A stretch of DNA of 64,000 bases from Heterodontus francisci (Eukaryota), in contig NC_090399.1 in NCBI RefSeq assembly GCF_036365525.1, positions 66,706,862 through 66,770,861 on the forward strand, in the 5' to 3' direction. The notes beneath the pieces were generated by a model. The model worked only from the letters and a program-made list of their open reading frames with translations, did not search any database and was not told the origin of the DNA. Made by a program: the position numbers and the translations under genes. Shown in pieces: positions 1-38,818 of the stretch (positions are counted from its first letter, which is position 1; every line of letters starts with the position of its first letter).

Positions 1-3000
1 CCTGTCTCTGTGTTTCAGTCTCTCACTCTGTCCAGAGCCCGAGTACTGGGAGAGACAGACACAGATACATGGAGCTGGGTGCAGGGTGGGGATTGTGTTG
101 GATTTATCTCTGTGTCTGGTTCAGTCTCTATTCTAACCCTGTCTCTGTGTTTCAGTCTCTCACTCTGTCCAGACCCCGAGTACTGGGAGAGACAGACACA
201 GATACACAAAGCTGGGTGCAGGGTGGGGATTGTGTTGGATTTATCTCTGTGTCTGGTTCAGTCTCTATTCTAACCCTGTCTCTGTGTTTCAGTCTCTCAC
301 TCTGTCCAGACCCCGAGTACTGGGAGAGACAGACACAGATACACAGAGCTGGGTGCAGGGTGGGGATTATGTTGGATTTATTTCTGTGTCTGGTTCAGTC
401 TCTATTCTAACCCTGTCTCTGTGTTTCAGTCTCTCACTGTGTCTAGACCCCGAGTACTGGGAGAGACAGACACAGATACACAGAGCTGGGTGCAGGGTGG
501 GGATTGTGTTGGATTTATCTCTGTGTCTGGTTCAGTCTCTATTCTCACCCTGTCTCTGTGTTTCAGTCTCTCACTCTGTCCAGAGCCCGAGTACTGGGAG
601 AGAGACACACAGATACACAGAGCTGAGTGCAGGGTGGGGATTGTGTTGCATTTATTTCTGTGTCTGGTTCAGTCTCTAATCTATTCCTGTCTCTGGGTTT
701 CAGTCTCTCACTGTGTCTAGACCCCGAGTACTGGGAGAGACAGACACAGATACACAGAGCTGGGTGCAGGGTGGGGATTGTGTTGCATTTATTTCTGTGT
801 CTGGTTCAGTCTCTATTCTAACCCTGTCTCTGTGTTTCAGACTCTCACTGTGTCCAGACACCGAGTACTGGGAGAGACAGACACAGATACACAGAGCTGG
901 GTGCGGGGTGGGGATTGTGTTGGGATTTATTTGAATGTCTGGTTCAGTCTCTATTCTAACCCTGTCTCTGTGTTTCAGTCTCTCACTCTGTCCAGAACCC
1001 GAGTTCTGGGAGAGACTGACACAGATACATGGAGGTGGGTGCAGGGTGGGGATTGTGTTGGGATTTATTTCTATGTCTGGTTCAGTCTCTATTCTAACCC
1101 TGTCTCTGTGTTTCAGTCTCTCACTGTGTCTAGACCCCGAGTACTGGGAGAGACAGACACAGATACACAGAGCTGGGTGCAGGGTGGGGATTGTGTTGCA
1201 TTTATTTCTGTGTCTGGTTCAGTCTCTATTCTAACCCTGTCTCTGTGTTTCAGTCTCTCACTGTGTCTAGACCCCGAGTACTGGGAGAGACAGACACAGA
1301 TACACAGAGCTGGGTGCAGGGTGAGGATTGTGTTGCATTTATTTCTGTGTCTGGTTCAGTCTCTATTCTAACCCTGTCTCTGTGTTTCAGTCTCTCACTG
1401 TGTCTCGACCCCGAGTACTGGGAGAGACAGACACAGATACACGGAGCGGGGTGCAGGGTGGTGATTGTGTTGGATTTATTTCTGTGTCTGTTTCAGTCTC
1501 TATTCTAACCCTGTCTCTGTGTTTCAGTCTCTCACTCTGTCCAGACCCCGAGTACTGGGAGAGACAGACACAGATACACAGAGCTGGGTGCAGAGTGGGG
1601 ATTGTGTTGGATTTATTTCTATGTCTGGTTCAGTCTCTATTCTCACCCTGTCTCTGTGTTTCAGTCTCTCACTCTGTCCAGAGCCCGAGTACTGGGAGAG
1701 ACAGACACAGATACACGGAGCTGGGTGCAGGGTGGGGATTGTGTTGCATTTATTTCTGTGTCTGGTTCAGTCTCTAATCTATTCCTGTCTCTGGGTTACA
1801 GTCTCTCACTCTGTCCAGACCCCGAGTACTGGGAGAGACAGACACAGATACACAGAGCTGGGTGCAGGGTGGGGATTGTGTTGGATTTATTTCTATGTCT
1901 GGTTCAGTCTCTATTCTAACCCTGTCTCTGTGTTTCAGTCTCTCACTGTGTCTAGACCCCGAGTACTGGGAGAGACAGACACAGATACACAGAGCTGGGT
2001 GCAGGGTGGGGATTGTGTTGGATTTATTTCTCTGTCTGTTTCAGTCTCTATTCTAACCCTGTCTCAGTGTTTCAGTCTCTCACTGTGTCTAGACCCCGAG
2101 TACTGGGAGAGACAGACACAGATACACAGAGCTGGGTGCAGGGTGGGGATTGTGTTGGATTTATTTCTCTGTCTGTTTCAGTCTCTATTCTAACCCTGTC
2201 TCTGTGTTTCATTCTCTCACTGTGTCTAGACCCCGAGTACTGGGAGAGACAGACACAGATACACAGAGCTGGGTGCAGGGTGGGGATTGTGTTGGATTTA
2301 TTTCTATGTCTGGTTCAGTCTCTATTCTAACCCTGTCTCTGTGTTTCAGTCTCTCACTGTGTCTAGACCCCGAGTACTGGGAGAGACAGACACTGATACA
2401 CAGAGCTGGGTGCAGGGTGGGGATTGTGTTGGATTTATTTCTATGTCTGGTTCAGTCTCTATTCTAACCCTGTCTCTGTGTTTCAGTCTCTCACTCTGTC
2501 CAGACCCCGAGTACTGGGAGAGACAGACACAGATACACAGAGCTGGGTGCAGAGTGGGGATTGTGTTGGATTTATTTCTATGTCTGGTTCAGTCTCTATT
2601 CTCACCCTGTCTCTGTGTTTCAGTCTCTCACTCTGTCCAGAGCCCGAGTACTGGGAGAGACAGACACAGATACATGGAGCTGGGTGCAGGGTGGGGATTG
2701 TGTTGGATTTATCTCTGTGTCTGGTTCAGTCTCTATTCTAACCCTGTCTCTGTGTTTCAGTCTCTCACTCTGTCCAGACCCCGAGTACTGGGAGAGACAG
2801 ACACAGATACACAGAGCTGGGTGCAGGGTGGGGATTGTGTTGGATTTATCTCTGTGTCTGGTTCAGTCTCTATTCTAACCCTGTCTCTGTGTTTCAGTCT
2901 CTCACTCTGTCCAGACCCCGAGTACTGGGAGAGACAGACACAGATACACAGAGCTGGGTGCAGGGTGGGGATTGTGTTGGATTTATTTCTGTGTCTGGTT

Positions 3001-6000
3001 CAGTCTCTATTCTAACCCTGTCTCTGTGTTTCAGTCTCTCACTGTGTCTAGACCCCGAGTACTGGGAGAGACAGACACAGATACACAGAGCTGGGTGCAG
3101 GGTGGGGATTGTGTTGGATTTATCTCTGTGTCTGGTTCAGTCTCTATTCTCACCCTGTCTCTGTGTTTCAGTCTCTCACTCTGTCCAGAGCCCGAGTACT
3201 GGGAGAGAGACACACAGATACACAGAGCTGAGTGCAGGGTGGGGATTGTGTTGCATTTATTTCTGTGTCTGGTTCAGTCTGTATTCTAACCCTGTCTCTG
3301 TGTTTCAGTCTCTCACTGTGTCCAGTCCCTGAGTACTGGGAGAGACAGACACTGATACACAGAGCTGGGTGCAGGGTGGGGATTGTGTTGTATTTATTTC
3401 TGTGTCTGGTTCAGTCTCTATTCTAACCCTGTCTCTGTGTTTCAGTCTCTCACTGTGTCTAGACCCCGAGTACTGGGAGAGACAGACACAGATACACAGA
3501 GCTGGGTGCAGGGTGGGGATTGTGTTGGATTTATTTCTATGTCTGGTTCAGTCTCTATTCTCACCCTGTCTCTGTGTTTCAGTCTCTCACTCTGTCCAGA
3601 GCCCGAGTACTGGGAGAGACAGACACAGATACACAGAGCTTTGTGCAGGGTGGGGATTGTGTTGGATTTATTTCTCTGTCTGGTTCAGTCTGTATTCTAA
3701 CCCTGTCTCTGTGTTTCAGTCTCTCACTGTGTCCAGACCCCGAGTACTGGGAGAGACAGACACTGATACACTGAGCTGGGTGCAGGGTGGGGATTGTGTT
3801 GGATTTATTTCTGTGTCTGGTTCAGTCTCTATTCTAACCCTGTCTCTGTGTTTCAGTCTCTCACTGTGTCCAGACCCCGAGTACTGGGAGAGACAGACAC
3901 AGATACACAGAGCTGGGTGCAGGGTGGGGATTCTGTTGGGATTTATTTGAATGTCTGGTTCAGTCTCTATTCTAACCCTGTCTCTGTGTTTCATTCTCTC
4001 ACTGTGTCTTGACCTCGAGTACTGGGAGAGACAGACACTGATACACAGAGCTGGGTGCAGGGTGGGGATTGTGTTGGATTTATTTCTATGCCTGGTTCAG
4101 TCTCTATTCTAACCCTGTCTCTGTGTTTCAGACTCTCACTGTGTCTAGACACCGAGTACTGGGAGAGACAGACACAGATACACAGAGCTGGGTGCAGGGT
4201 GGGGATTGTGTTGGGATTTATTTGAATGTCTGGTTCAGTCTCTATTCTAACCCTGTCTCTGTGTTTCAGTCTCTCACTGTGTCAAGACCCCGAGTACTGG
4301 GAGAGACAGACACAGATACACGGAGCTGGGTGCAGGGTGGGGATTCGGTTGGGATTTATTTGAATGTCTGGTTCAGTCTCTATTCTAACCCTGTCTCTGT
4401 GTTTCAGTCTCTCACTGTGTCTAGACCCCGAGTACTGGGAGAGACAGACACAGATACACAGAGCTGGGTGCAGGGTGGGGATTGTGTTGCATTTATTTCT
4501 GTGTCTGGTTCAGTCTCTATTCTAACCCTGTCTTTGTGTTTCAGTCTCTCACTGTGTCCAGACCCCGAGTACTGGGAGAGACAGACACAGATACCCAGAG
4601 CTGGGTGCAGGGTGGGGATTGTGTTGGATTTATTTCTCTGTCTGCCTCAGTCTCTATTGTAACCCTTTCTTTGTGTTTCAGTCTCTCACTGTGTCTAGAC
4701 CCCGAGTACTGGGAGAGACAGACACAGATACACAGAGCTGGGTGCAGGGTGGGGATTGTGTTGCATTTATTTCTGTGTCTGGTTCAGTCTCTAATCTATT
4801 CCTGTCTCTGGGTTTCAGTCTCTCACTGTGTCTAGACCCCGAGTACTGGGAGAGACAGACACAGATACACAGAGCTGGGTGCAGGGTGGGGATTGTGTTG
4901 CATTTATTTCTGTGTCTGGTTCAGTCTCTAATCTATTCCTGTCTCTGGGTTTCAGTCTCTCACTGTGTCTAGACCCCGAGTACTGGGAGAGACAGACACA
5001 GATACACAGAGCTGGGTGCAGGGTGGGGATTGTGTTGGGATTTATTTGAATGTCTGGTTCAGTCTCTATTCTAACCCTGTCTCTGTGTTTCAGTCTCTCA
5101 CTCTGTCCAGAACCCGAGTACTGGGAGAGACAGACACAGATACACGGAGCGGGGTGCAGGGTGGTGATTGTGTTGGATTTATTTCTGTGTCTGTTTCAGT
5201 CTCTATTCTAACCCTGTCTCTGTGTTTCAGTCTCTCACTCTGTCCAGACCCCGAGTACTGGGAGAGACAGACACAGATACACAGAGCAGGGTGCAGAGTG
5301 GGGATTGTGTTGGATTTATTTCTATGTCTGGTTCAGTCTCTATTCTCACCCTGTCTCTGTGTTTCAGTCTCTCACTCTGTCCAGAGCCCGAGTACTGGGA
5401 GAGACAGACACAGATACACGGAGCTGGGTGCAGGGTGGGGATTGTGTTGCATTTATTTCTGTGTCTGGTTCAGTCTCTAATCTATTCCTGTCTCTGGGTT
5501 TCAGTCTCTCACTCTGTCCAGAGCCCGAGTACTGGGAGAGACAGACACAGATACACAGAGCTGGGTGCAGGGTGGGGATTGTGTCGGATTTATTTCTGTG
5601 TCTGGTTCAGTCTCTATTCTAACCCTGTCTCTGTGTTTCAGTCTCTCACTCTGTCCAGACCCCGAGTACTGGGAGAGACAGACACAGATACACAGAGCTG
5701 GGTGCAGAGTGGGGATTGTGTTGGATTTATTTCTATGTCTGGTTCAGTCTCTATTCTCACCCTGTCTCTGTGTTTCAGTCTCTCACTCTGTCCAGAGCCC
5801 GAGTACTGGGAGAGACAGACACAGATACACGGAGCTGGGTGCAGGGTGGGGATTGTGTTGCATTTATTTCTGTGTCTGGTTCAGTCTCTAATCTATTCCT
5901 GTCTCTGGGTTTCAGTCTCTCACTCTGTCCAGAGCCCGAGTACTGAGAGAGACAGACACAGATACACAGAGCTGGGTGCAGGGTGGGGATTGTGTTGGAT

Positions 6001-9000
6001 TTATTTCTCTGTCTGGTTCAGTCTCTATTCTAACCCTGTCTCTGTGTTTCACTCTCTCACTGTGTCCAGACCCCGAGTACTGGGAGAGACAGACACTGAT
6101 ACACAGAGCTGGGTGCAGGGTGGGGATTGTGTTGGATTTATTTCTATGTCTGGTTCAGTCTCTATTCTCACCCTGTCTCTGTGTTTCAGTCTCTCAATCT
6201 GTCCAGACCCCGAGTACTGGGAGAGACAGACACAGATACACAGAGCTGGGTGCAGGGTGGGGATTGTGTTGGATTTATTTCTGTGTCTGGTTCAGTCTCT
6301 ATTCTAACCCTGTCTCTGTGTTTCACTCTCTCACTGTGTCCAGACCCCGAGTACTGGGAGAGACAGACACAGATACACAGAGCTGGGTGCAGGGTGGGGA
6401 TTGTGTTTGATTTATTTCTCTGTCTGGTTCAGTCTGTATTCTAACCCTGTCTCTGTGTTTCAGTCTCTCACTCTGACCAGAGCCCGAGTATTGGGAGAGA
6501 CAGACACAGATACACAGAGCTGGGTGCAGGGTGGGGATTGTGTTGGATTTATTTCTGTGTCTGGTTCAGTCTCTATTCTAACCCTGTCTCTGTGTTTCAG
6601 TCTCTCACTCTGTCCAGACCCCGAGTACTGGGAGAGACAGACACAGATACACAAAGCTGGGTGCAGGGTGGGGATTGTGTTGGATTTATCTCTGTGTCTG
6701 GTTCAGTCTCTATTCTAACCCTGTCTCTGTGTTTCAGTCTCTCACTCTGTCCAGACCCCGAGTACTGGGAGAGACAGACACAGATACACAGAGCTGAGTG
6801 CAGGGTGGGGATTGTGTTGGATTTATTTCTGTGTCTGGTTCAGTCTCTATTCTAACCCTGTCTCTGTGTTTCAGTCTCTCACTGTGTCTAGACCCCGAGT
6901 ACTGGGAGAGACAGACACAGATACACAGAGCTGGGTGCAGGGTGGGGAATTTGTTGGATTTATCTCTGTGTCTGGTTCAGTCTCTATTCTCACCCTGTCT
7001 CTGTGTTTCAGTCTCTCACTCTGTCCAGAGCCCGAGTACTGGGAGAGAGACACACAGATACACAGAGCTGAGTGCAGGGTGGGGATTGTGTTGCATTTAT
7101 TTCTGTGTCTGGTTCAGTCTGTATTCTAACCCTGTCTCTGTGTTTCAGTCTCTCACTGTGTCCAGTCCCTGAGTACTGGGAGAGACAGACACAGATACAC
7201 AGAGCTGGGTGCAGGGTGGGGATTGTGTTGTATTTATTTCTATGTGTGGTTCAGTCTGTATTCTAACCCTGTCTCTGTGTTTCAGTCTCTCACTGTGTCT
7301 AGACCCCGAGTACTGGGAGAGACAGACACAGATACACAGAGCTGGGTGCAGGGTGGGGATTGTGTTGGATTTATTTCTATGTCTGGTTCAGTCTCTATTC
7401 TAACCCTGTCTCTGTGTTTCACTCTCTCACTGTGTCCAGACCCCGAGTACTGGGAGAGACAGACACAGATACACAGAGCTGGGTGCAGGGTGGGGATTGT
7501 GTTGGATTTATTTCTATGTCTGGTTCAGTCTCTATTCTCACCCTGTCTCTGTGTTTCAGTCTCTCACTCTGTCCAGAGCCCGAGTACTGGGAGAGACAGA
7601 CACTGATACACAGAGCTTTGTGCAGGGTGGGGATTGTGTTGGATTTATTTCTCTGTCTGGTTCAGTCTGTATTCTAACCCTGTCTCTGTGTTTCAGTCTC
7701 TCACTGTGTCTAGACCCCGAGTACTGGGAGAGACAGACACTGATACACAGAGCTGGGTGCAGGGTGGGGATTGTGTTGGATTTATTTCTGTGTCTGGTTC
7801 AGTCTCTATTCTAACCCTGTCTCTGTGTTTCAGTCTCTCACTGTGTCCAGACCCCGAGTACTGGGAGAGACAGACACAGATACACAGAGCTGGGTGCAGG
7901 GTGGGGATTGTGTTGGGATTTATTTGAATGTCTGGTTCAGTCTCTATTCTAACCCTGTCTCTGTGTTTCATTCTCTCACTGTGTCTTGACCCCGAGTACT
8001 GGGAGAGACAGACACTGATACACAGAGCTGGGTGCAGGGTGGGGATTGTGTTGGATTTATTTCTATGCCTGGTTCAGTCTCTATTCTAACCCTGTCTCTG
8101 TGTTTCAGACTCTCACTGTGCCTAGACACCGAGTACTGGGAGAGACAGACACACATACACAGAGCTGGGTGCAGGGTGGGGATTGTGTTGGGATTTATTT
8201 GAATGTCTGGTTCAGTCTCTATTCTAACCCTGTCTCTGTGTTTCAGTCTCTCACTGTGTCAAGACCCCGAGTACTGGGAGAGACAGACACAGATACACGG
8301 AGCTGGGTGCAGGGTGGGGATTCGGTTGGGATTTATTTGAATGTCTGGTTCAGTCTCTATTCTAACCCTGTCTCTGTGTTTCAGTCTCTCACTGTGTCTA
8401 GACCCCGAGTACTGGGAGAGACAGACACAGATACACAGAGCTGGGTGCAGGGTGCAGATTGTGTTGGATTTATTTCTATGTCTGGTTCAGTCTCTATTCT
8501 GACCCTGTCTCTGTGTTTCATTCTCTCACTGTGTCCAGACCCCGAGTACTGGGAGAGACAGACACAGATACACAGAGCTGGGTGCAGGGTGGGGATTGTG
8601 TTGGATTTATTTCTATGTCTGGTTCAGTCTCTATTCTAACCCTGTCTCTGTGTTTCAGTCTCTCACTGTGTCTAGACCCCGAGTACTGGGAGGGACAGAC
8701 ACAGATACACAGAGCTGGGTGCAGGGTGGGGATTGTGTTGGATTTATTTCTATGTCTGGTTCAGTCTCTATTCTAACCCTGTCTCTGTGTTTCAGTCTCT
8801 CACTGTGTCTGGACCCCGAATACTGGGAGAGACAGACACAGATACACAGAGCTGGGTGCAGGGTGGGGATTGTGTTGGATTTATTTCTATGTCTGGTTCA
8901 GTCTCTATTCTAACCCTGTCTCTGTGTTTCAGTCTCTCACTGTGTCTAGACCCCGAGTACTGGGAGAGACAGACACAGATACACAGAGCTGGGTGCAGGG

Positions 9001-12000
9001 TGGGGATTGTGTTGGATTTATTTCTATGTCTGGTTCAGTCTCTATTCTAACCCTGTCTCTGTGTTTCAGTCTCTCACTGTGTCTAGACCCCGAGTACTGG
9101 GAGAGACAGACACTGATACACAGAGCTGGGTGCAGGGTGGGGATTGTGTTGGATTTATTTCTGTGTCTGGTTCAGTCTCTATTCTAACCCTGTCTCTGTG
9201 TTTCAGTCTCTCACTGTGTATGGACCCCGAGTACTGGGAGAGACAGACACAGATACACAGAGCTGGGTGCAGGGTGGGGATTGTGTTGGATTTATTTCTG
9301 TGTCTGGTTCTGTCTCTATTCTAACCCTGTCTCTGTGTTTCAGTCTCTCACTGTGTCTAGACCCCGAGTACTGGGAGAGACAGACACAGATACACAGAGC
9401 TGGGTGCAGGGTGGGGATTCGGTTGGGATTTATTTGAATGTCTGGTTCAGTCTGTATTCTAACCCTGTCTCTGTGTTTCAGTCTCTCACTCTGTCCAGAC
9501 CCCGAGTACTGGGAGAGACAGACACAGATACACAGAGCTGGGTGCAGGGTGGGGATTGTGTTGGGATTTATTTGAATGTCTGGTTCAGTCTCTATTCTAA
9601 CCCTGTCTCTGTGTTTCAGTCTCTCACTGTGTCTAGACCCCGAGTACTGGGAGAGACAGACACAGATACACAGAGCTGGGTGCAGGGTGGGGATTGTGTT
9701 GGATTTATTTCTATGCCTGGTTCAGTCTCTATTCTAACCCTGTCTCTGTGTTTCAGACTCTCACTGTGTCAAGACCCCGAGTACTGGGAGAGACAGACAC
9801 AGATACACAGAGCTGGGTGCAGGGTGGGGATTCGGTTGGGATTTATTTGAATGTCTGGTTCAGTCTCTATTCTAACCCTGTCTCTGTGTTTCAGTCTCTC
9901 ACTGTGTCCAGACCCCGAGTACTGGGAGAGACAGACACAGATACACAGAGCTGGGTGCAGGGTGGGGATTGTGTTGGATTTATTTCTATGTCTGGTTCAG
10001 TCTCTATTCTAACCCTGTCTCTGTGTTTCAGTCTCTCACTGTGTCTAGACCCCGAGTACTGGGAGAGACAGACACAGATACACAGAGCTGGGTGCAGGGT
10101 GGGGATTGTGTTGGATTTATTTCTATGTCTGGTTCAGTCTCTATTCTAACCCTGTCTCTGTGTTTCAGTCTCTCACTCTGTCCAGACCCCGAGTACTGGG
10201 AGAGACAGACACTGATACACAGAGCTGGGTGCAGGGTGGGGATTGTGTTGGATTTATTTCTGTGTCTGGTTCAGTCTCTATTCTAACCCTGTCTCTGTGT
10301 TTCAGTCTCTCACTGTGTCTAGACCCCGAGTACTGGGAGAGACAGACACTGATACACAGAGCTGGGTGCAGGGTGGGGATTGTGTTGGATTTATTTCTGT
10401 GTCTGGTTCAGTCTCTATTCTAACCCTGTCTCTGTGTTTCAGTCTCTCACTGTGTATGGACCCCGAGTACTGGGAGAGACAGACACAGATACACAGAGCT
10501 GGGTGCAGGGTGGGGATTGTGTTGGATTTATTTCTGTGTCTGGTTCTGTCTCTATTCTAACCCTGTCTCTGTGTTTCAGTCTCTCACTGTGTCTAGACCC
10601 CGAGTACTGGGAGAGACAGACACAGATACACAGAGCTGGGTGCAGGGTGGGGATTCGGTTGGGATTTATTTGAATGTCTGTTTCAGTCTGTATTCTAACC
10701 CTGTCTCTGTGTTTCAGTCTCTCACTCTGTCCAGACCCCGAGTACTGGGAGAGACAGACACAGATACACAGAGCTGGGTGCAGGGTGGGGATTGTGTTGG
10801 GATTTATTTGAATGTCTGGTTCAGTCTCTATTCTAACCCTGTCTCTGTGTTTCAGTCTCTCACTGTGTCTAGACCCCGAGTACTGGGAGAGACAGACACA
10901 GATACACAGAGCTGGGTGCAGGGTGGGGATTGTGTTGGATTTATTTCTATGCCTGGTTCAGTCTCTATTCAAACCCTGTCTCTGTGTTTCAGACTCTCAC
11001 TGTGTCAAGACCCCGAGTACTGGGAGAGACAGACACAGATACACAGAGCTGGGTGCAGGGTGGGGATTCGGTTGGGATTTATTTGAATGTCTGGTTCAGT
11101 CTCTATTCTACCCCTGTCTCTGTGTTTCAGACTCTCACTGTGCCTAGACACCGAGTACTGGGAGAGACAGACACTGATACACAGAGCTGGGTGCAGGGTG
11201 GGGATTGTGTTGGATTTATTTCTATGTCTGGTTCAGTCTCTATTCTAACCCTGTCTCTGTGTTTCAGTCTCTCACTCTGTCCAGACCCCGAGTACTGGGA
11301 GAGACAGACACAGATACACAGAGCTGGGTGCAGGGTGGGGATTGTGTTGGATTTATTTCTATGTCTGGTTCAGTCTCTATTCTAACCCTGTCTCTGTGTT
11401 TCAGTCTCTCGCTCTGTCCAGACCCCGAGTACTGGGAGAGACAGACACTGATACACAGAGCTGGGTGCAGGGTGGGGATTGTGTTGGATTTATTTCTGTG
11501 TCTGGTTCAGTCTCTATTCTAACCCTGTCTCTGTGTTTCAGTCTCTCACTGTGTCTAGACCCCGAGTACTGGGAGAGACAGACACTGATACACAGAGCTG
11601 GGTGCAGGGTGGGGATTGTGTTGGATTTATTTCTGTGTCTGGTTCAGTCTCTATTCTAACCCTGTCTCTGTGTTTCAGTCTCTCACTGTGTCTAGACCCC
11701 GAGTACTGGGAGAGACAGACACAGATACACAGAGCTGGGTGCAGGGTGGGGATTGTGTTGGGATTTATTTGAATGTCTGGTTCAGTCTCTATTCTAACCC
11801 TGTCTCTGTGTTTCATTCTCTCACTGTGTCTAGACCCCGAGTACTGGGAGAGACAGACACAGATACACGGAGCTGGGTGCAGGGTGGGGATTGTGTTGGA
11901 TTTATTTCTATGTCTGGTTCAGTCTCTATTCTAACCCTGTCTCTGTGTTTCATTCTCTCACTGTGTCTAGACCCCGAGTACTGGGAGAGACAGACACAGA

Positions 12001-14558
12001 TACACAGAGCTGGGTGCAGGGTGGGGATTCGGTTGGGATTTATTTGAATGTCTGGTTCAGTCTCTATTCTAACCCTGTCTCTGTGTTTCAGTCTCTCACT
12101 GTGTCTAGACCCCGAGTACTGGGAGAGACAGACACAGATACACAGAGCTGGGTGCAGGGTGGGGATTGTGTTGGATTTATTTCTATGTCTGGTTCAGTCT
12201 CTATTCTAACCCTGTCTCTGTGTTTCAGTCTCTCACTGTGTCTAGACACCGAGTACTGGGAGAGACAGACACTGATACACAGAGCTGGGTGCAGGGTGGG
12301 GATTGTGTTGGATTTATTTCTATGTCTGGTTCAGTCTCTATTCTAACCCTGTCTCTGTGTTTCAGTCTCTCACTGTGTCTAGACCCCGAGTACTGGGAGA
12401 GACAGACACTGATACACAGAGCTGGGTGCAGGGTGGGGATTGTGTTGGATTTATTTCTATGTCTGGTTCATTCTCTATTCTAACCCTGTCTCTGTGTTTC
12501 AGTCTCTCACTCTGTCCAGACCCCGAGTACTGGGAGAGACAGACACAGATACACAGAGCTGGGTGCAGGGTGGGGATTGTGTTGGATTTATTTCTATGTC
12601 TGGTTCAGTCTCTATTCTAACCCTGTCTCTGTGTTTCAGTCTCTCACTCTGTCCAGACCCCGAGTACTGGGAGAGACAGACACTGATACACAGAGCTGGG
12701 TGCAGGGTGGGGATTGTGTTGGATTTATTTCTGTGTCTGGTTCAGTCTCTATTCTAACCCTGTCTCTGTGTTTCAGTCTCTCACTGTGTCTAGACCCCGA
12801 GTACTGGGAGAGACAGACACTGATACACAGAGCTGGGTGCAGGGTGGGGATTGTGTTGGATTTATTTCTGTGTCTGGTTCAGTCTCTATTCTAACCCTGT
12901 CTCTGTGTTTCAGTCTCTCACTGTGTCTAGACCCCGAGTACTGGGAGAGACAGACACAGATACACAGAGCTGGGTGCAGGGTGGGGATTGTGTTGGGATT
13001 TATTTGAATGTCTGGTTCAGTCTCTATTCTAACCCTGTCTCTGTGTTTCATTCTCTCACTGTGTCTAGACCCCGAGTACTGGGAGAGACAGACACAGATA
13101 CACGGAGCTGGGTGCAGGGTGGGGATTGTGTTGGATTTATTTCTATGTCTGGTTCAGTCTCGATTCTAACCCTGTCTCTGTGTTTCATTCTCTCACTGTG
13201 TCTAGACCCCGAGTACTGGGAGAGACAGACACAGATACACAGAGCTGGGTGCAGGGTGGGGATTGTGTTGGGATTTATTTGAATGTCTGGTTCAGTCTCT
13301 ATTCTTACCCTGTCTCTGTGTTTCATTCTCTCACTGTGTCCAGACCCCGAGTACTGGGAGAGACAGACACAGATACACAGAGCTGGGTGCAGGGTGGGGA
13401 TTGTGTTGGATTTATTTCTGTGTCTGGTTCAGTCTCTATTCTAACCCTGTCTCTGTGTTTCAGTCTCTCACTGTGTCTAGACCCCGAGTACTGGGAGTGA
13501 CAGACACTGATACACAGAGCTGGGTGCAGGGTGGGGATTGTGTTGGATTTATTTCTGTGTCTGTTTCAGTCTGTATTCTAACCCTGTCTCTGTGTTTCAG
13601 TCTCTCACTGTGTTTAGACCCCGAGTACTGGGAGAGACAGACACAGATACACAGAGCTGAGTGAAGGGTGGGGATTGTGTTGGATTTATTTCTGTGTCTG
13701 GTTCAGTCTCTATTCTAACCCTGTCTCTGTGTTTCAGTCTCTCACTGTGTCTAGACCCCGAGTACTGGGAGAGACAGACACAGATACACAGAGCTGGGTG
13801 CAGGGTGGGGATTGTGTTGGGATTTATTTCTGTGTCTGGTTCAGTCTCTATTCTCACCCTGTCTCTGTGTTTCACTCTCTCACTGTGTCTTGACCCCGAG
13901 TACTGGGAGAGACAGACACAGATACACAGAGCTGGGTGCAGGGTGGGGATTGTGTTGGATTTATTTCTATGTCTGGTTCAGTCTCTATTCTAACCCTGTC
14001 TCTGTGTTTCAGTCTCTCACTGTGTCTAGACCCCGAGTACTGGGAGAGACAGACACTGATACACAGAGCTGGGTGCAGGGTGGGGATTGTGTTGGATTTA
14101 TTTCTGTGTCTGGTTCAGTCTCTATTCTAACCCTGTCTCTGTGTTTCAGTCTGTCACTGTGTCTAGACCCCGAGTACTGGGAGAGACAGACACTGATACA
14201 CAGAGCTGGGTGCAGGGTGGGGATTGTGTTGGATTTATTTCTATGTCTGGTTCAGTCTCTATTCTAACCCTGTCTCTGTGTTTCAGTCTCTCACTGTGTC
14301 CAGACCCCGAGTACTGGGAGAGACACACAGATACACAGAGCTGGGTGCAGGGTGGGGATTGTGTTGGATTTATTTCTGTGTCTGGTTCAGTCTCTATTCT
14401 AACCCTGTCTCTGTGTTTCAGTCTCTCACTGTGTCTAGACCCCGAGTACTGGGAGAGACAGACACTGATACACAGAGCTGGGTGCAGGGTGGGGATTGTG
14501 TTGGATTTATTTCTAAGTCTGGTTCAGTCTCTATTCTAACCCTGTCTCTGTGTTTCAG
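1..14558 (+). repeat. 137-bp tandem satellite (about 106 copies in the window, continuing past the left edge), filling the intron upstream of the alpha1 exon
   Basis: Unit: ctaaccctgtctctgtgtttcagtctctcact(c/g)tgtc(c/t)agaccccgagtactgggagagacagacacagatacacagagctgggtgcagggtggggattgtgttggatttatttct(g/a)tgtctggttcagtctctatt. ORF starts recur every 137 nt (e.g. 8459, 8596, 8733, 8870). There are 138-bp and 135-bp indel variants. Confidence 0.98.
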
Positions 14559-14819
14559 ACTCTCACTCTCTGCGGTATTTTCACACCTCAACGACCCCGA
14601 TTCCCGGTCTCCCGGAGTTTGTGACTGTTGGTTATGTGGATGAGCTACAGATTGATCACTATGACAGTGATCTGAAGAAGGCTGTCCCTCGGCAGAGCTG
14701 GATGGCGGAGAGTCAGGGCCTTGATTACTGGGAGGAGGAGACACAGAAACGCTGGTTTTGGGAGGAGGACGGGAAGGTCAATATTCGTAACGTCATGAAG
14801 CAGAGCAACCAGTCTACCG
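14559..14819 (+). CDS. UAA: MHC class I heavy chain, alpha1-domain exon (phase 1-1, 261 nt): (D)SHSLRYFHTSTTPIPGLPEFVTVGYVDELQIDHYDSDLKKAVPRQSWMAESQGLDYWEEETQKRWFWEEDGKVNIRNVMKQSNQST
   Basis: Acceptor ctaaccctgtctctgtgtttcag|AC at 14558/14559 and donor G|GTGAGT at 14819/14820. Class I alpha1 motifs SHSLRYF, PEFV.VGYVD, YDSD, PRQ.W and YWE, plus the N86 sequon NQS. The UAA assignment rests on remembered similarity to nurse shark Gici-UAA, not on a search. Confidence 0.96.
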
Positions 14820-14968: not shown

Positions 14969-15241
14969 GGATACACACCTGGCAGATGATGTGCGGCTGT
15001 GAACTGCGGGATGACGGCAGCACCGAGGGGTTTACCCAGTTTGGCTGGGACGGGAAAGACCTGATCAGCTTCGACAAGGAGAATATGGTGTGGGTGACCC
15101 CGGTCAGCTGGGGAGAGATCACCAAGAACAAGTGGGATCAGAACAAGGCCAGGAACCAGTATTGGAAGGGTTACCTGGAGGGAATCTGCATAGAGTGGCT
15201 GAAGAATTACCTGAAGCTGGGAGAAAAAGAACTGAGACCCG
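14969..15241 (+). CDS. UAA: MHC class I alpha2-domain exon (phase 1-1, 273 nt): (G)IHTWQMMCGCELRDDGSTEGFTQFGWDGKDLISFDKENMVWVTPVSWGEITKNKWDQNKARNQYWKGYLEGICIEWLKNYLKLGEKELRP
   Basis: Acceptor ctctctcattaacag|GG at 14968/14969 and donor G|GTGAGT at 15241/15242. Conserved disulfide Cys pair (GC..; ICIEW) and motifs HT.Q, DG.D, TK.KW, YLEG.C.EWL..Y. In frame with the alpha1 exon. Confidence 0.97.
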
Positions 15242-38554: not shown

Positions 38555-38818
38555 TTGCTCCCTCCGTGTCCTTTACCCGTCGCGGTGATAGTAACCGACT
38601 GTCCTGTGTCACCACTGGGTTTTACCCTCAAGCCATCGAGGTGACTCTGCGCAGAGATGGGGTTTCCCTCGATGAATCTCTCTCCGACGGGATCCTTCCC
38701 AATCACGATGGCACCTACCAGACCCACAAATGGACTGATGTTGATCCCGAGGACCAGGCCAAGTTCTCCTGTGAGGTGGATCACAGCGGGCTGAAGGAGA
38801 AGATGGTGGTGTTTTATG
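38555..38818 (+). CDS. UAA: MHC class I alpha3 (Ig C1-set) exon (phase 1-1, 264 nt): (V)APSVSFTRRGDSNRLSCVTTGFYPQAIEVTLRRDGVSLDESLSDGILPNHDGTYQTHKWTDVDPEDQAKFSCEVDHSGLKEKMVVFY
   Basis: Branch point CTAAC (38531-38535), pyrimidine tract and cag| at 38554; donor G|GTAAGT at 38818/38819. Ig-C1 motifs LSC..TGFYP, PNHDGTYQ and FSC.V.H.GL. In frame with the alpha2 exon. Confidence 0.96.

Follow-up and report, generated by a model that had tools for sequence, protein, structure and literature searches.

Repeated alpha1 acceptor sites in intron 1 of an MHC class I gene of Heterodontus francisci, probably derived from a partial exon duplication

In intron 1 of an MHC class I heavy-chain gene of the shark Heterodontus francisci, the acceptor of the alpha1 exon stands at the end of a long row of sites that resemble it. 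The locus raises two questions: how the row arose, and how the leader exon is joined to the one acceptor that opens the real exon. We analysed a window of 64 kb on contig NC_090399.1 (G000:C29:66706862-66770861; coordinates marked C29 refer to this contig) and its surroundings. In the reading that we consider probable, the array is an amplified partial exon duplication, likely tolerated, whose acceptors are likely skipped for want of a full exon and a good donor.

The window contains most of one class I heavy-chain gene on the plus strand. Its parts, with intact exons, are as follows.

C29:66700334-66700382, plus strand, leader exon of 49 nt, MIELTVLVLLCGGVSA, about 6,500 bases before the window, donor CAG/GTGGGT
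1..14558, plus strand, in-window part of the array, 105 decoys and the real acceptor, delimited by repeat scan and site spacing
14534..14558, plus strand, real alpha1 acceptor, closing the last array unit, with CTAAC, pyrimidine tract and CAG
14559..14819, plus strand, MHC class I alpha1 exon of 261 nt, open, donor CCG/GTGAGT
14969..15241, plus strand, alpha2 exon of 273 nt, open; the 149 nt intron 2 before it is spliced out in contigs
38555..38818, plus strand, alpha3 exon, C1-set Ig by domain match, open
C29:66796996, plus strand, transmembrane exon, 51.3 kb after alpha3 and outside the window

Intron 1 extends for 21,037 nt from the leader exon to alpha1. The sequence-only reading had taken the functional acceptor to be simply the last repeat unit and had placed a GTGAGT donor 261 nt downstream of it, and both statements agree with this layout.

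The alpha1, alpha2 and alpha3 exons matched MHC_I or C1-set domains. The top solved structure for the alpha1 exon in a PDB search was 6LUP (E 7e-25), the nurse shark classical class I molecule Gici-UAA*01 (PMC8236899). Compared with 6LUP, the present gene has Q in place of R near the end of alpha1, and a paralog described below keeps R. This position is presumably R84. The peptide-anchor residues of class Ia molecules are Y7, Y59, R84, T143, K146, W147, Y159 and Y171; by eye, seven of the eight were found in the array-bearing gene, with Q for R84, and all eight in the paralog. Allelic polymorphism and broad, high expression are further marks of class Ia. Classical class Ia of sharks (UAA) is described as tightly linked to psmb8/9 and tap (PMC10751288). 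A single exon, assigned to the proteasome family and not to a particular subunit, was located at C29:65.90 Mb, about 0.8 Mb from the gene.

The array has a period of 137 bp and comprises 137 acceptor-like sites, namely 136 decoys and, as the last, the real alpha1 acceptor. Within the window 106 sites are spaced 135-138 nt apart, and TRF returned 106.2 copies with period 137 and 95% matches. Upstream, the array starts some 4,150 bases outside the window, following 64-bp and 40-bp arrays, and this part adds 31 sites, the first two without AG. AG is kept in 119 of the 136 decoys and gone from 17. CTAAC plus CAG is present in 91/136, and 85/136 match the last 25 nt of the real acceptor; for the 105 in-window decoys the corresponding counts are 92 (AG), 73 (CTAAC plus CAG) and 71 (25-nt match). 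Over the last 60 nt none of the 136 decoys matched the real acceptor exactly, each having 1-8 mismatches. The earlier claim of about 100 decoys identical to the real site is borne out in that repeated acceptors exist, but there are 136 of them, and "identical" is too strong for a set with 17 sites lacking AG and no 60-nt match. The leader donor was also said to have to bypass the upstream acceptors, and this is supported: a real leader exon lies upstream, and its donor has 136 look-alike sites to pass. The authentic +1 A is carried, as CAG/ACTCTCAC, by 9/136 decoys, and the copies reported to read CAG/ACTCTCAC were recovered at all six places (838, 4129, 8106, 9754, 10990 and 11128).

A 32-nt word of the unit had 93 exact matches in the 6.0-Gb genome, all in intron 1 of this gene and of its paralog, and the reversed word had none. 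Chance is therefore excluded as the origin of the repeated acceptors. Units average 97% identity to their consensus, and 99 of the 136 are distinct, with repeated blocks. Long tandem arrays are error-prone, and an assembly artefact might be supposed to have created or inflated this one; with so many distinct units, a separate array in the paralog and the unit itself present in contigs of RNA runs, we regard such an artefact as extremely unlikely.

Four parts make up each unit: roughly 70 nt from the end of the intron, the acceptor itself, nt 2-9 or 2-11 of the exon, and a piece of the alpha1 helix from a distant part of that exon. Likeness to the head of the exon stops by nt 9-11 in 130/136 decoys. 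In one frame the consensus then gives DPEYWERQTQI, part of the helix shifted out of frame: unit nt 20-72 correspond in the alignment to nt 162-215 of the alpha1 exon, less one base. One copy may serve as an example.

13757..13809, plus strand, alpha1-helix-derived piece (unit nt 20-72), reading DPEYWERQTQI in another frame and corresponding to alpha1 exon nt 162-215

When unit nt 13-90 were aligned to alpha1, none of 1000 dinucleotide shuffles reached the observed score for five of six class I exons tested; for the gene's own alpha1 exon 1/1000 did. The alignment score was 57 on the paralog alpha1 and 16-23 on the controls (alpha2, alpha3 and reverse strand). In a PDB search with the 28-residue translation of the unit, the best 60 of 69 matches were all MHC class I alpha1 helices, each individually weak (E 0.09-0.96). 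Judged by these alignments, the unit is an internally deleted partial duplicate of the alpha1 exon, and the decoy acceptors are explained in this way without any function being assigned to them.

The same unit occurs at a second locus.

C29:66346507-66346770, minus strand, paralog alpha1, preceded by 15 acceptor-like sites (14 decoys) with an identical unit consensus

The array of the paralog starts in unique intron sequence at CAGGGATTG. Unique intron-1 sequence of the two genes is 97.7% alike (599/613), against only 81% (212/261) in alpha1, where 32 codons differ by amino-acid-changing substitutions and 4 by silent ones only (15 and 4 in alpha2). The helix piece matches the paralog exon at 40/49 positions and the exon of the present gene at 34/49. 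Since the piece lies nearer to the paralog exon, the array is likely older than the separation of the two genes and likely retains an earlier alpha1-helix sequence. Homogenisation of the two arrays between loci is unneeded: zero differences between the consensuses has P about 0.04 at 2.3% divergence, before consensus smoothing is taken into account.

On this evidence the following course of events is proposed. One partial duplication would have taken in about 70 nt of intron and about 215 nt of exon and been joined at a GGGA microhomology; the paralog exon has CGGGAAG at the end of the helix piece. About 150 nt would have been lost within the exon copy, the duplication and the loss being possible in either order. 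The duplication would predate the paralog split, and unequal exchange or slippage would then have led to 15 sites in one gene and 137 in the other. On this view each of the 136 decoys would belong to an additional copy of the intron-1/alpha1 junction, joined to a fragment of the alpha1 helix and repeated head to tail, and no selected function of the array would be required.

A function might be sought in recombination. The fragment covers the alpha1 helix and stands in 136 copies beside the exon, the excess of amino-acid-changing codons is found next to an intron that has hardly diverged, and in human CBS a junction duplicate has been suggested to act as a template for conversion (PMC2630376). 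The older helix fragments could on these grounds supply short tracts for the peptide-binding region, or favour exchange between the two genes. However, the codons of the unit occur in neither exon (PEYWER in the unit, LDYWEE and PDYWEQ in the exons), units so close to one consensus offer little variety, and the helix piece is one base short compared with the exon. Such a reservoir seems to us very unlikely. One class Ia gene per elasmobranch assembly has been described (PMC10751288); because of this, and because the 97.7% intron identity contrasts with the 32:4 ratio of alpha1 codons, the UAA-like sister pair may result from a recent duplication with strong diversifying change.

Other class I loci were compared in the same genome. 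Alpha1-like sequences were found in 24 places, and the intron tails of 12 were looked at. Apart from the two sister genes, to which the array is restricted, none of 10 other class I loci had an AG-bearing repeat of its own acceptor in the stretch checked at each locus. At five of these 10, all on C29, arrays of 43-53 bp that are poor in AG end near the alpha1 acceptor; they repeat a branch-point-like CTGAT and a pyrimidine tract and omit the AG, and the longest extends over at least 18 kb. Other local tandem arrays occupy introns 1, 3 and 4 of the array-bearing gene and the corresponding introns of sister genes; local expansion of repeats is thus usual in these class I genes.

Some of these arrays have features of their own. 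Intron 3 (15242-38554) is made up of 30-bp repeats in which GTGAGT occurs 190 times, 149 of them as AGA/GTGAGT, which resembles the real donor of alpha2, CCG/GTGAGT. Intron 4 measures 51.3 kb and is nearly all one 47-bp array (38837-64000 of the window and onward). A third copy of the leader and the start of intron 1, 98.7% alike, lies on the plus strand from C29:66837782 onward; it leads into an array of 32-bp repeats, 69 kb or more in length, and another class I alpha1 adjoins it in back-to-back arrangement. A search of that locus found no alpha1 exon belonging to this third leader.

To compare donor strength, we counted matches to the nine-position consensus and computed the energy of the duplex with U1, a crude score. 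The best donor in the unit, AGG/GTGGGG, has 4/9 matches and -8.7 kcal/mol. The leader, alpha1 and alpha2 donors have 7/9 each, with -13.3, -11.3 and -10.2 kcal/mol, respectively. This bears out the earlier premise that the units lack a strong donor such as that of alpha1, and because the best unit donor is weaker, exon definition is likely the filter by which decoys are skipped. The donor score is not proof of exon definition, because the transmembrane-exon donor (6/9, -9.2 kcal/mol) comes close to the unit donor and three units do better. These three carry donor-like sites (GAG/GTGGGT, AGG/GTGAGG) behind an intact AG, and by sequence they would most likely be the places of any leak.

1035 and 1321, plus strand, units with improved donors by donor scoring; a third lies about 1,830 bases before the window
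13738..13804, plus strand, example pseudo-exon of 67 nt from a decoy AG to AGG/GTGGGG, comprising the exon head and then the alpha1-helix piece

An out-of-frame pseudo-exon of 67 nt is predicted for 107/119 AG decoys, 64 of them with a stop, and reading through past the AG would meet a stop within 5 codons in 60/119. Leaks onto decoys would be unproductive, as had been supposed for any use of them. In the proposed mechanism, exon definition would keep the pseudo-exon of 67 nt from being used, and the occasional leak would give a frameshifted RNA that is degraded. A recursive splice site is AG/GT, an acceptor followed immediately by a donor. In each of the 119 AG decoys the base after AG is T or A, and recursive splicing was ruled out here.

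Apart from the donor, other sequence features may bear on the decoys. The base after AG is T in 110/119. The motif GA[AG]GA, used as a purine-rich exon enhancer motif, occurs 0 times in the unit and 5 and 2 times in two real exons, a crude count. In the decoy AG, the G has been replaced by each of the three other bases, at 17/137 sites here and at 3/15 sites of the paralog, where each of the three losses among 14 decoys is different; the first two sites of the longer array are among those without AG. From this one might suppose that the decoys are mildly harmful and silenced by non-donor features (the +1 T, loss of enhancers, binding of silencers), with AG-less units being favoured. However, AG is retained in 119/136 decoys, nine decoys with the authentic +1 A persist, and 11/137 unit positions vary as much as the G of AG or more, all three substitutions being seen at 6/137. 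We consider this explanation unlikely; as a post hoc observation, the loss of AG is at best a hint of a mild cost.

Transcript evidence came from contigs of three runs of one sample, a form in which rare products are dropped by assembly. None of the runs listed was recorded as RNA; those used were presumed to be RNA, and spliced joins do appear in them; run X6, from another organism, gave coverage of alpha2 only. In contigs of two of the three runs the letters of the leader stand directly before 14556, that is, the leader is joined to the real acceptor. The gene had been assumed to be transcribed and spliced at this site, and the join is seen, assignable to the present gene or to the paralog with 14 decoys alike since both leaders agree there. 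In one run a 226-nt contig equals the alpha1 of this gene exactly and continues into alpha2, with a GT..AG intron removed between them. The unit was seen as one 167-nt contig per run, unspliced and passing through a decoy acceptor. Among the contigs listed for the three runs of this sample there was no junction of leader to decoy and no loose end at a unit; a further 15 loose ends and 470 pieces fall outside this listing. Contig depths (8-56 for the unit, 66-121 for sequence exactly of this gene, thousands or more for paralog-like sequence) were set aside, since depth in contigs is no basis for ranking genes or their parts. That more decoys seem to go with less RNA was discounted, being confounded by promoter and intron size as well.

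These contigs bear on the idea of a rheostat, in which slight leakage at every decoy feeds RNA into degradation and the amount of class I mRNA is lowered or tuned by how many units there are. As many as 119 AG-bearing decoys precede the real site, and with frameshifting pseudo-exons at 107 of them and early stops at 60, any leak would yield nothing useful and would show up poorly in steady-state RNA. In humans, the length of repeats has been tied to splicing at thousands of loci (PMC10078293), and tandem sites of UBC are used stochastically (PMC10809524). But the contigs listed contain no trace of a leader-to-unit joint, nothing links unit number to expression, and the published cases discussed next are described as splicing normally. 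Tuning by leakage appears to us quite unlikely. A combined version, in which the number of leaky units (14 decoys in one gene, 136 in the other) sets class I output while the array keeps a fossil allele of the peptide-binding helix for copying back into the exon, is likewise given a small chance.

The closest relatives of the array that we found are the "mirage" minisatellites of amphioxus, described in the globin gene BflGb6 and also in BflGb9, Adh3, troponin C and PGBD5 (PMC3087553, PMC3902484). In BflGb6, tandem copies of 150-160 bp comprise the end of an intron and the start of an exon, with 6 and 3 copies per haplotype (PMC3087553). Many mirage units keep their splice signals, and regular splicing is reported to be undisturbed (PMC3087553, PMC3902484). 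The shark array likewise unites the 3' end of an intron with the 5' part of the next exon and keeps many but not all splice signals. Its unit crosses an exon-intron boundary; the units are similar (97% on average) and 119/136 decoys retain AG. Length differs as 137 against 15 sites, compared between two paralogs only. As for regular splicing, the contigs of one sample show the leader at the real acceptor and list no joint at a decoy, with the gene of the join ambiguous. In structure the array falls within the definition of a mirage. It differs from that of BflGb6 in having 137 and 15 sites rather than 6 and 3, and in an exon part that is a chimera of the head and exon nt ~162-215 rather than a plain head; a plain head is not part of the definition as worded in the portions of PMC3087553 and PMC3902484 available to us. 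Unlike the amphioxus cases, it lies in a vertebrate MHC gene and is common to two paralogs. Scale, chimeric unit and MHC setting are what sets it apart.

Two human cases are comparable in part. In CBS 844ins68 an intron/exon junction is duplicated, the distal site is used and normal mRNA is described (PMC2630376, PMC4479818); unlike in the shark, there is one extra copy of 68 bp and no array. In F7 IVS7 a 37-bp VNTR forms a minisatellite over an exon boundary, its identical pseudo-sites are silent and the exon-adjacent site wins (PMC1557585); it differs from the shark array in lying on the donor side and having 5-9 copies. The silence in F7 was attributed to oriented scanning rather than to exon definition alone (PMC1557585). 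No report of such an array in sharks was found in the literature on shark MHC, splice-site repeats and CBS, taken outside supplements and most subscription journals.

The locus is an extreme natural test of the choice of 3' splice sites, with 85 upstream sites that match the true acceptor over 25 nt. Two nearly identical genes that stand about ninefold apart in decoy number offer an easy test of exon definition against first-come use. Alpha1-helix primers in PCR, or short-read typing, could hit the intron copies. If it were true that copy number tunes the level of class I, the array would be a new source of variation in MHC expression. The finding extends mirages to a vertebrate MHC gene, in which an older alpha1-helix sequence is likely preserved.
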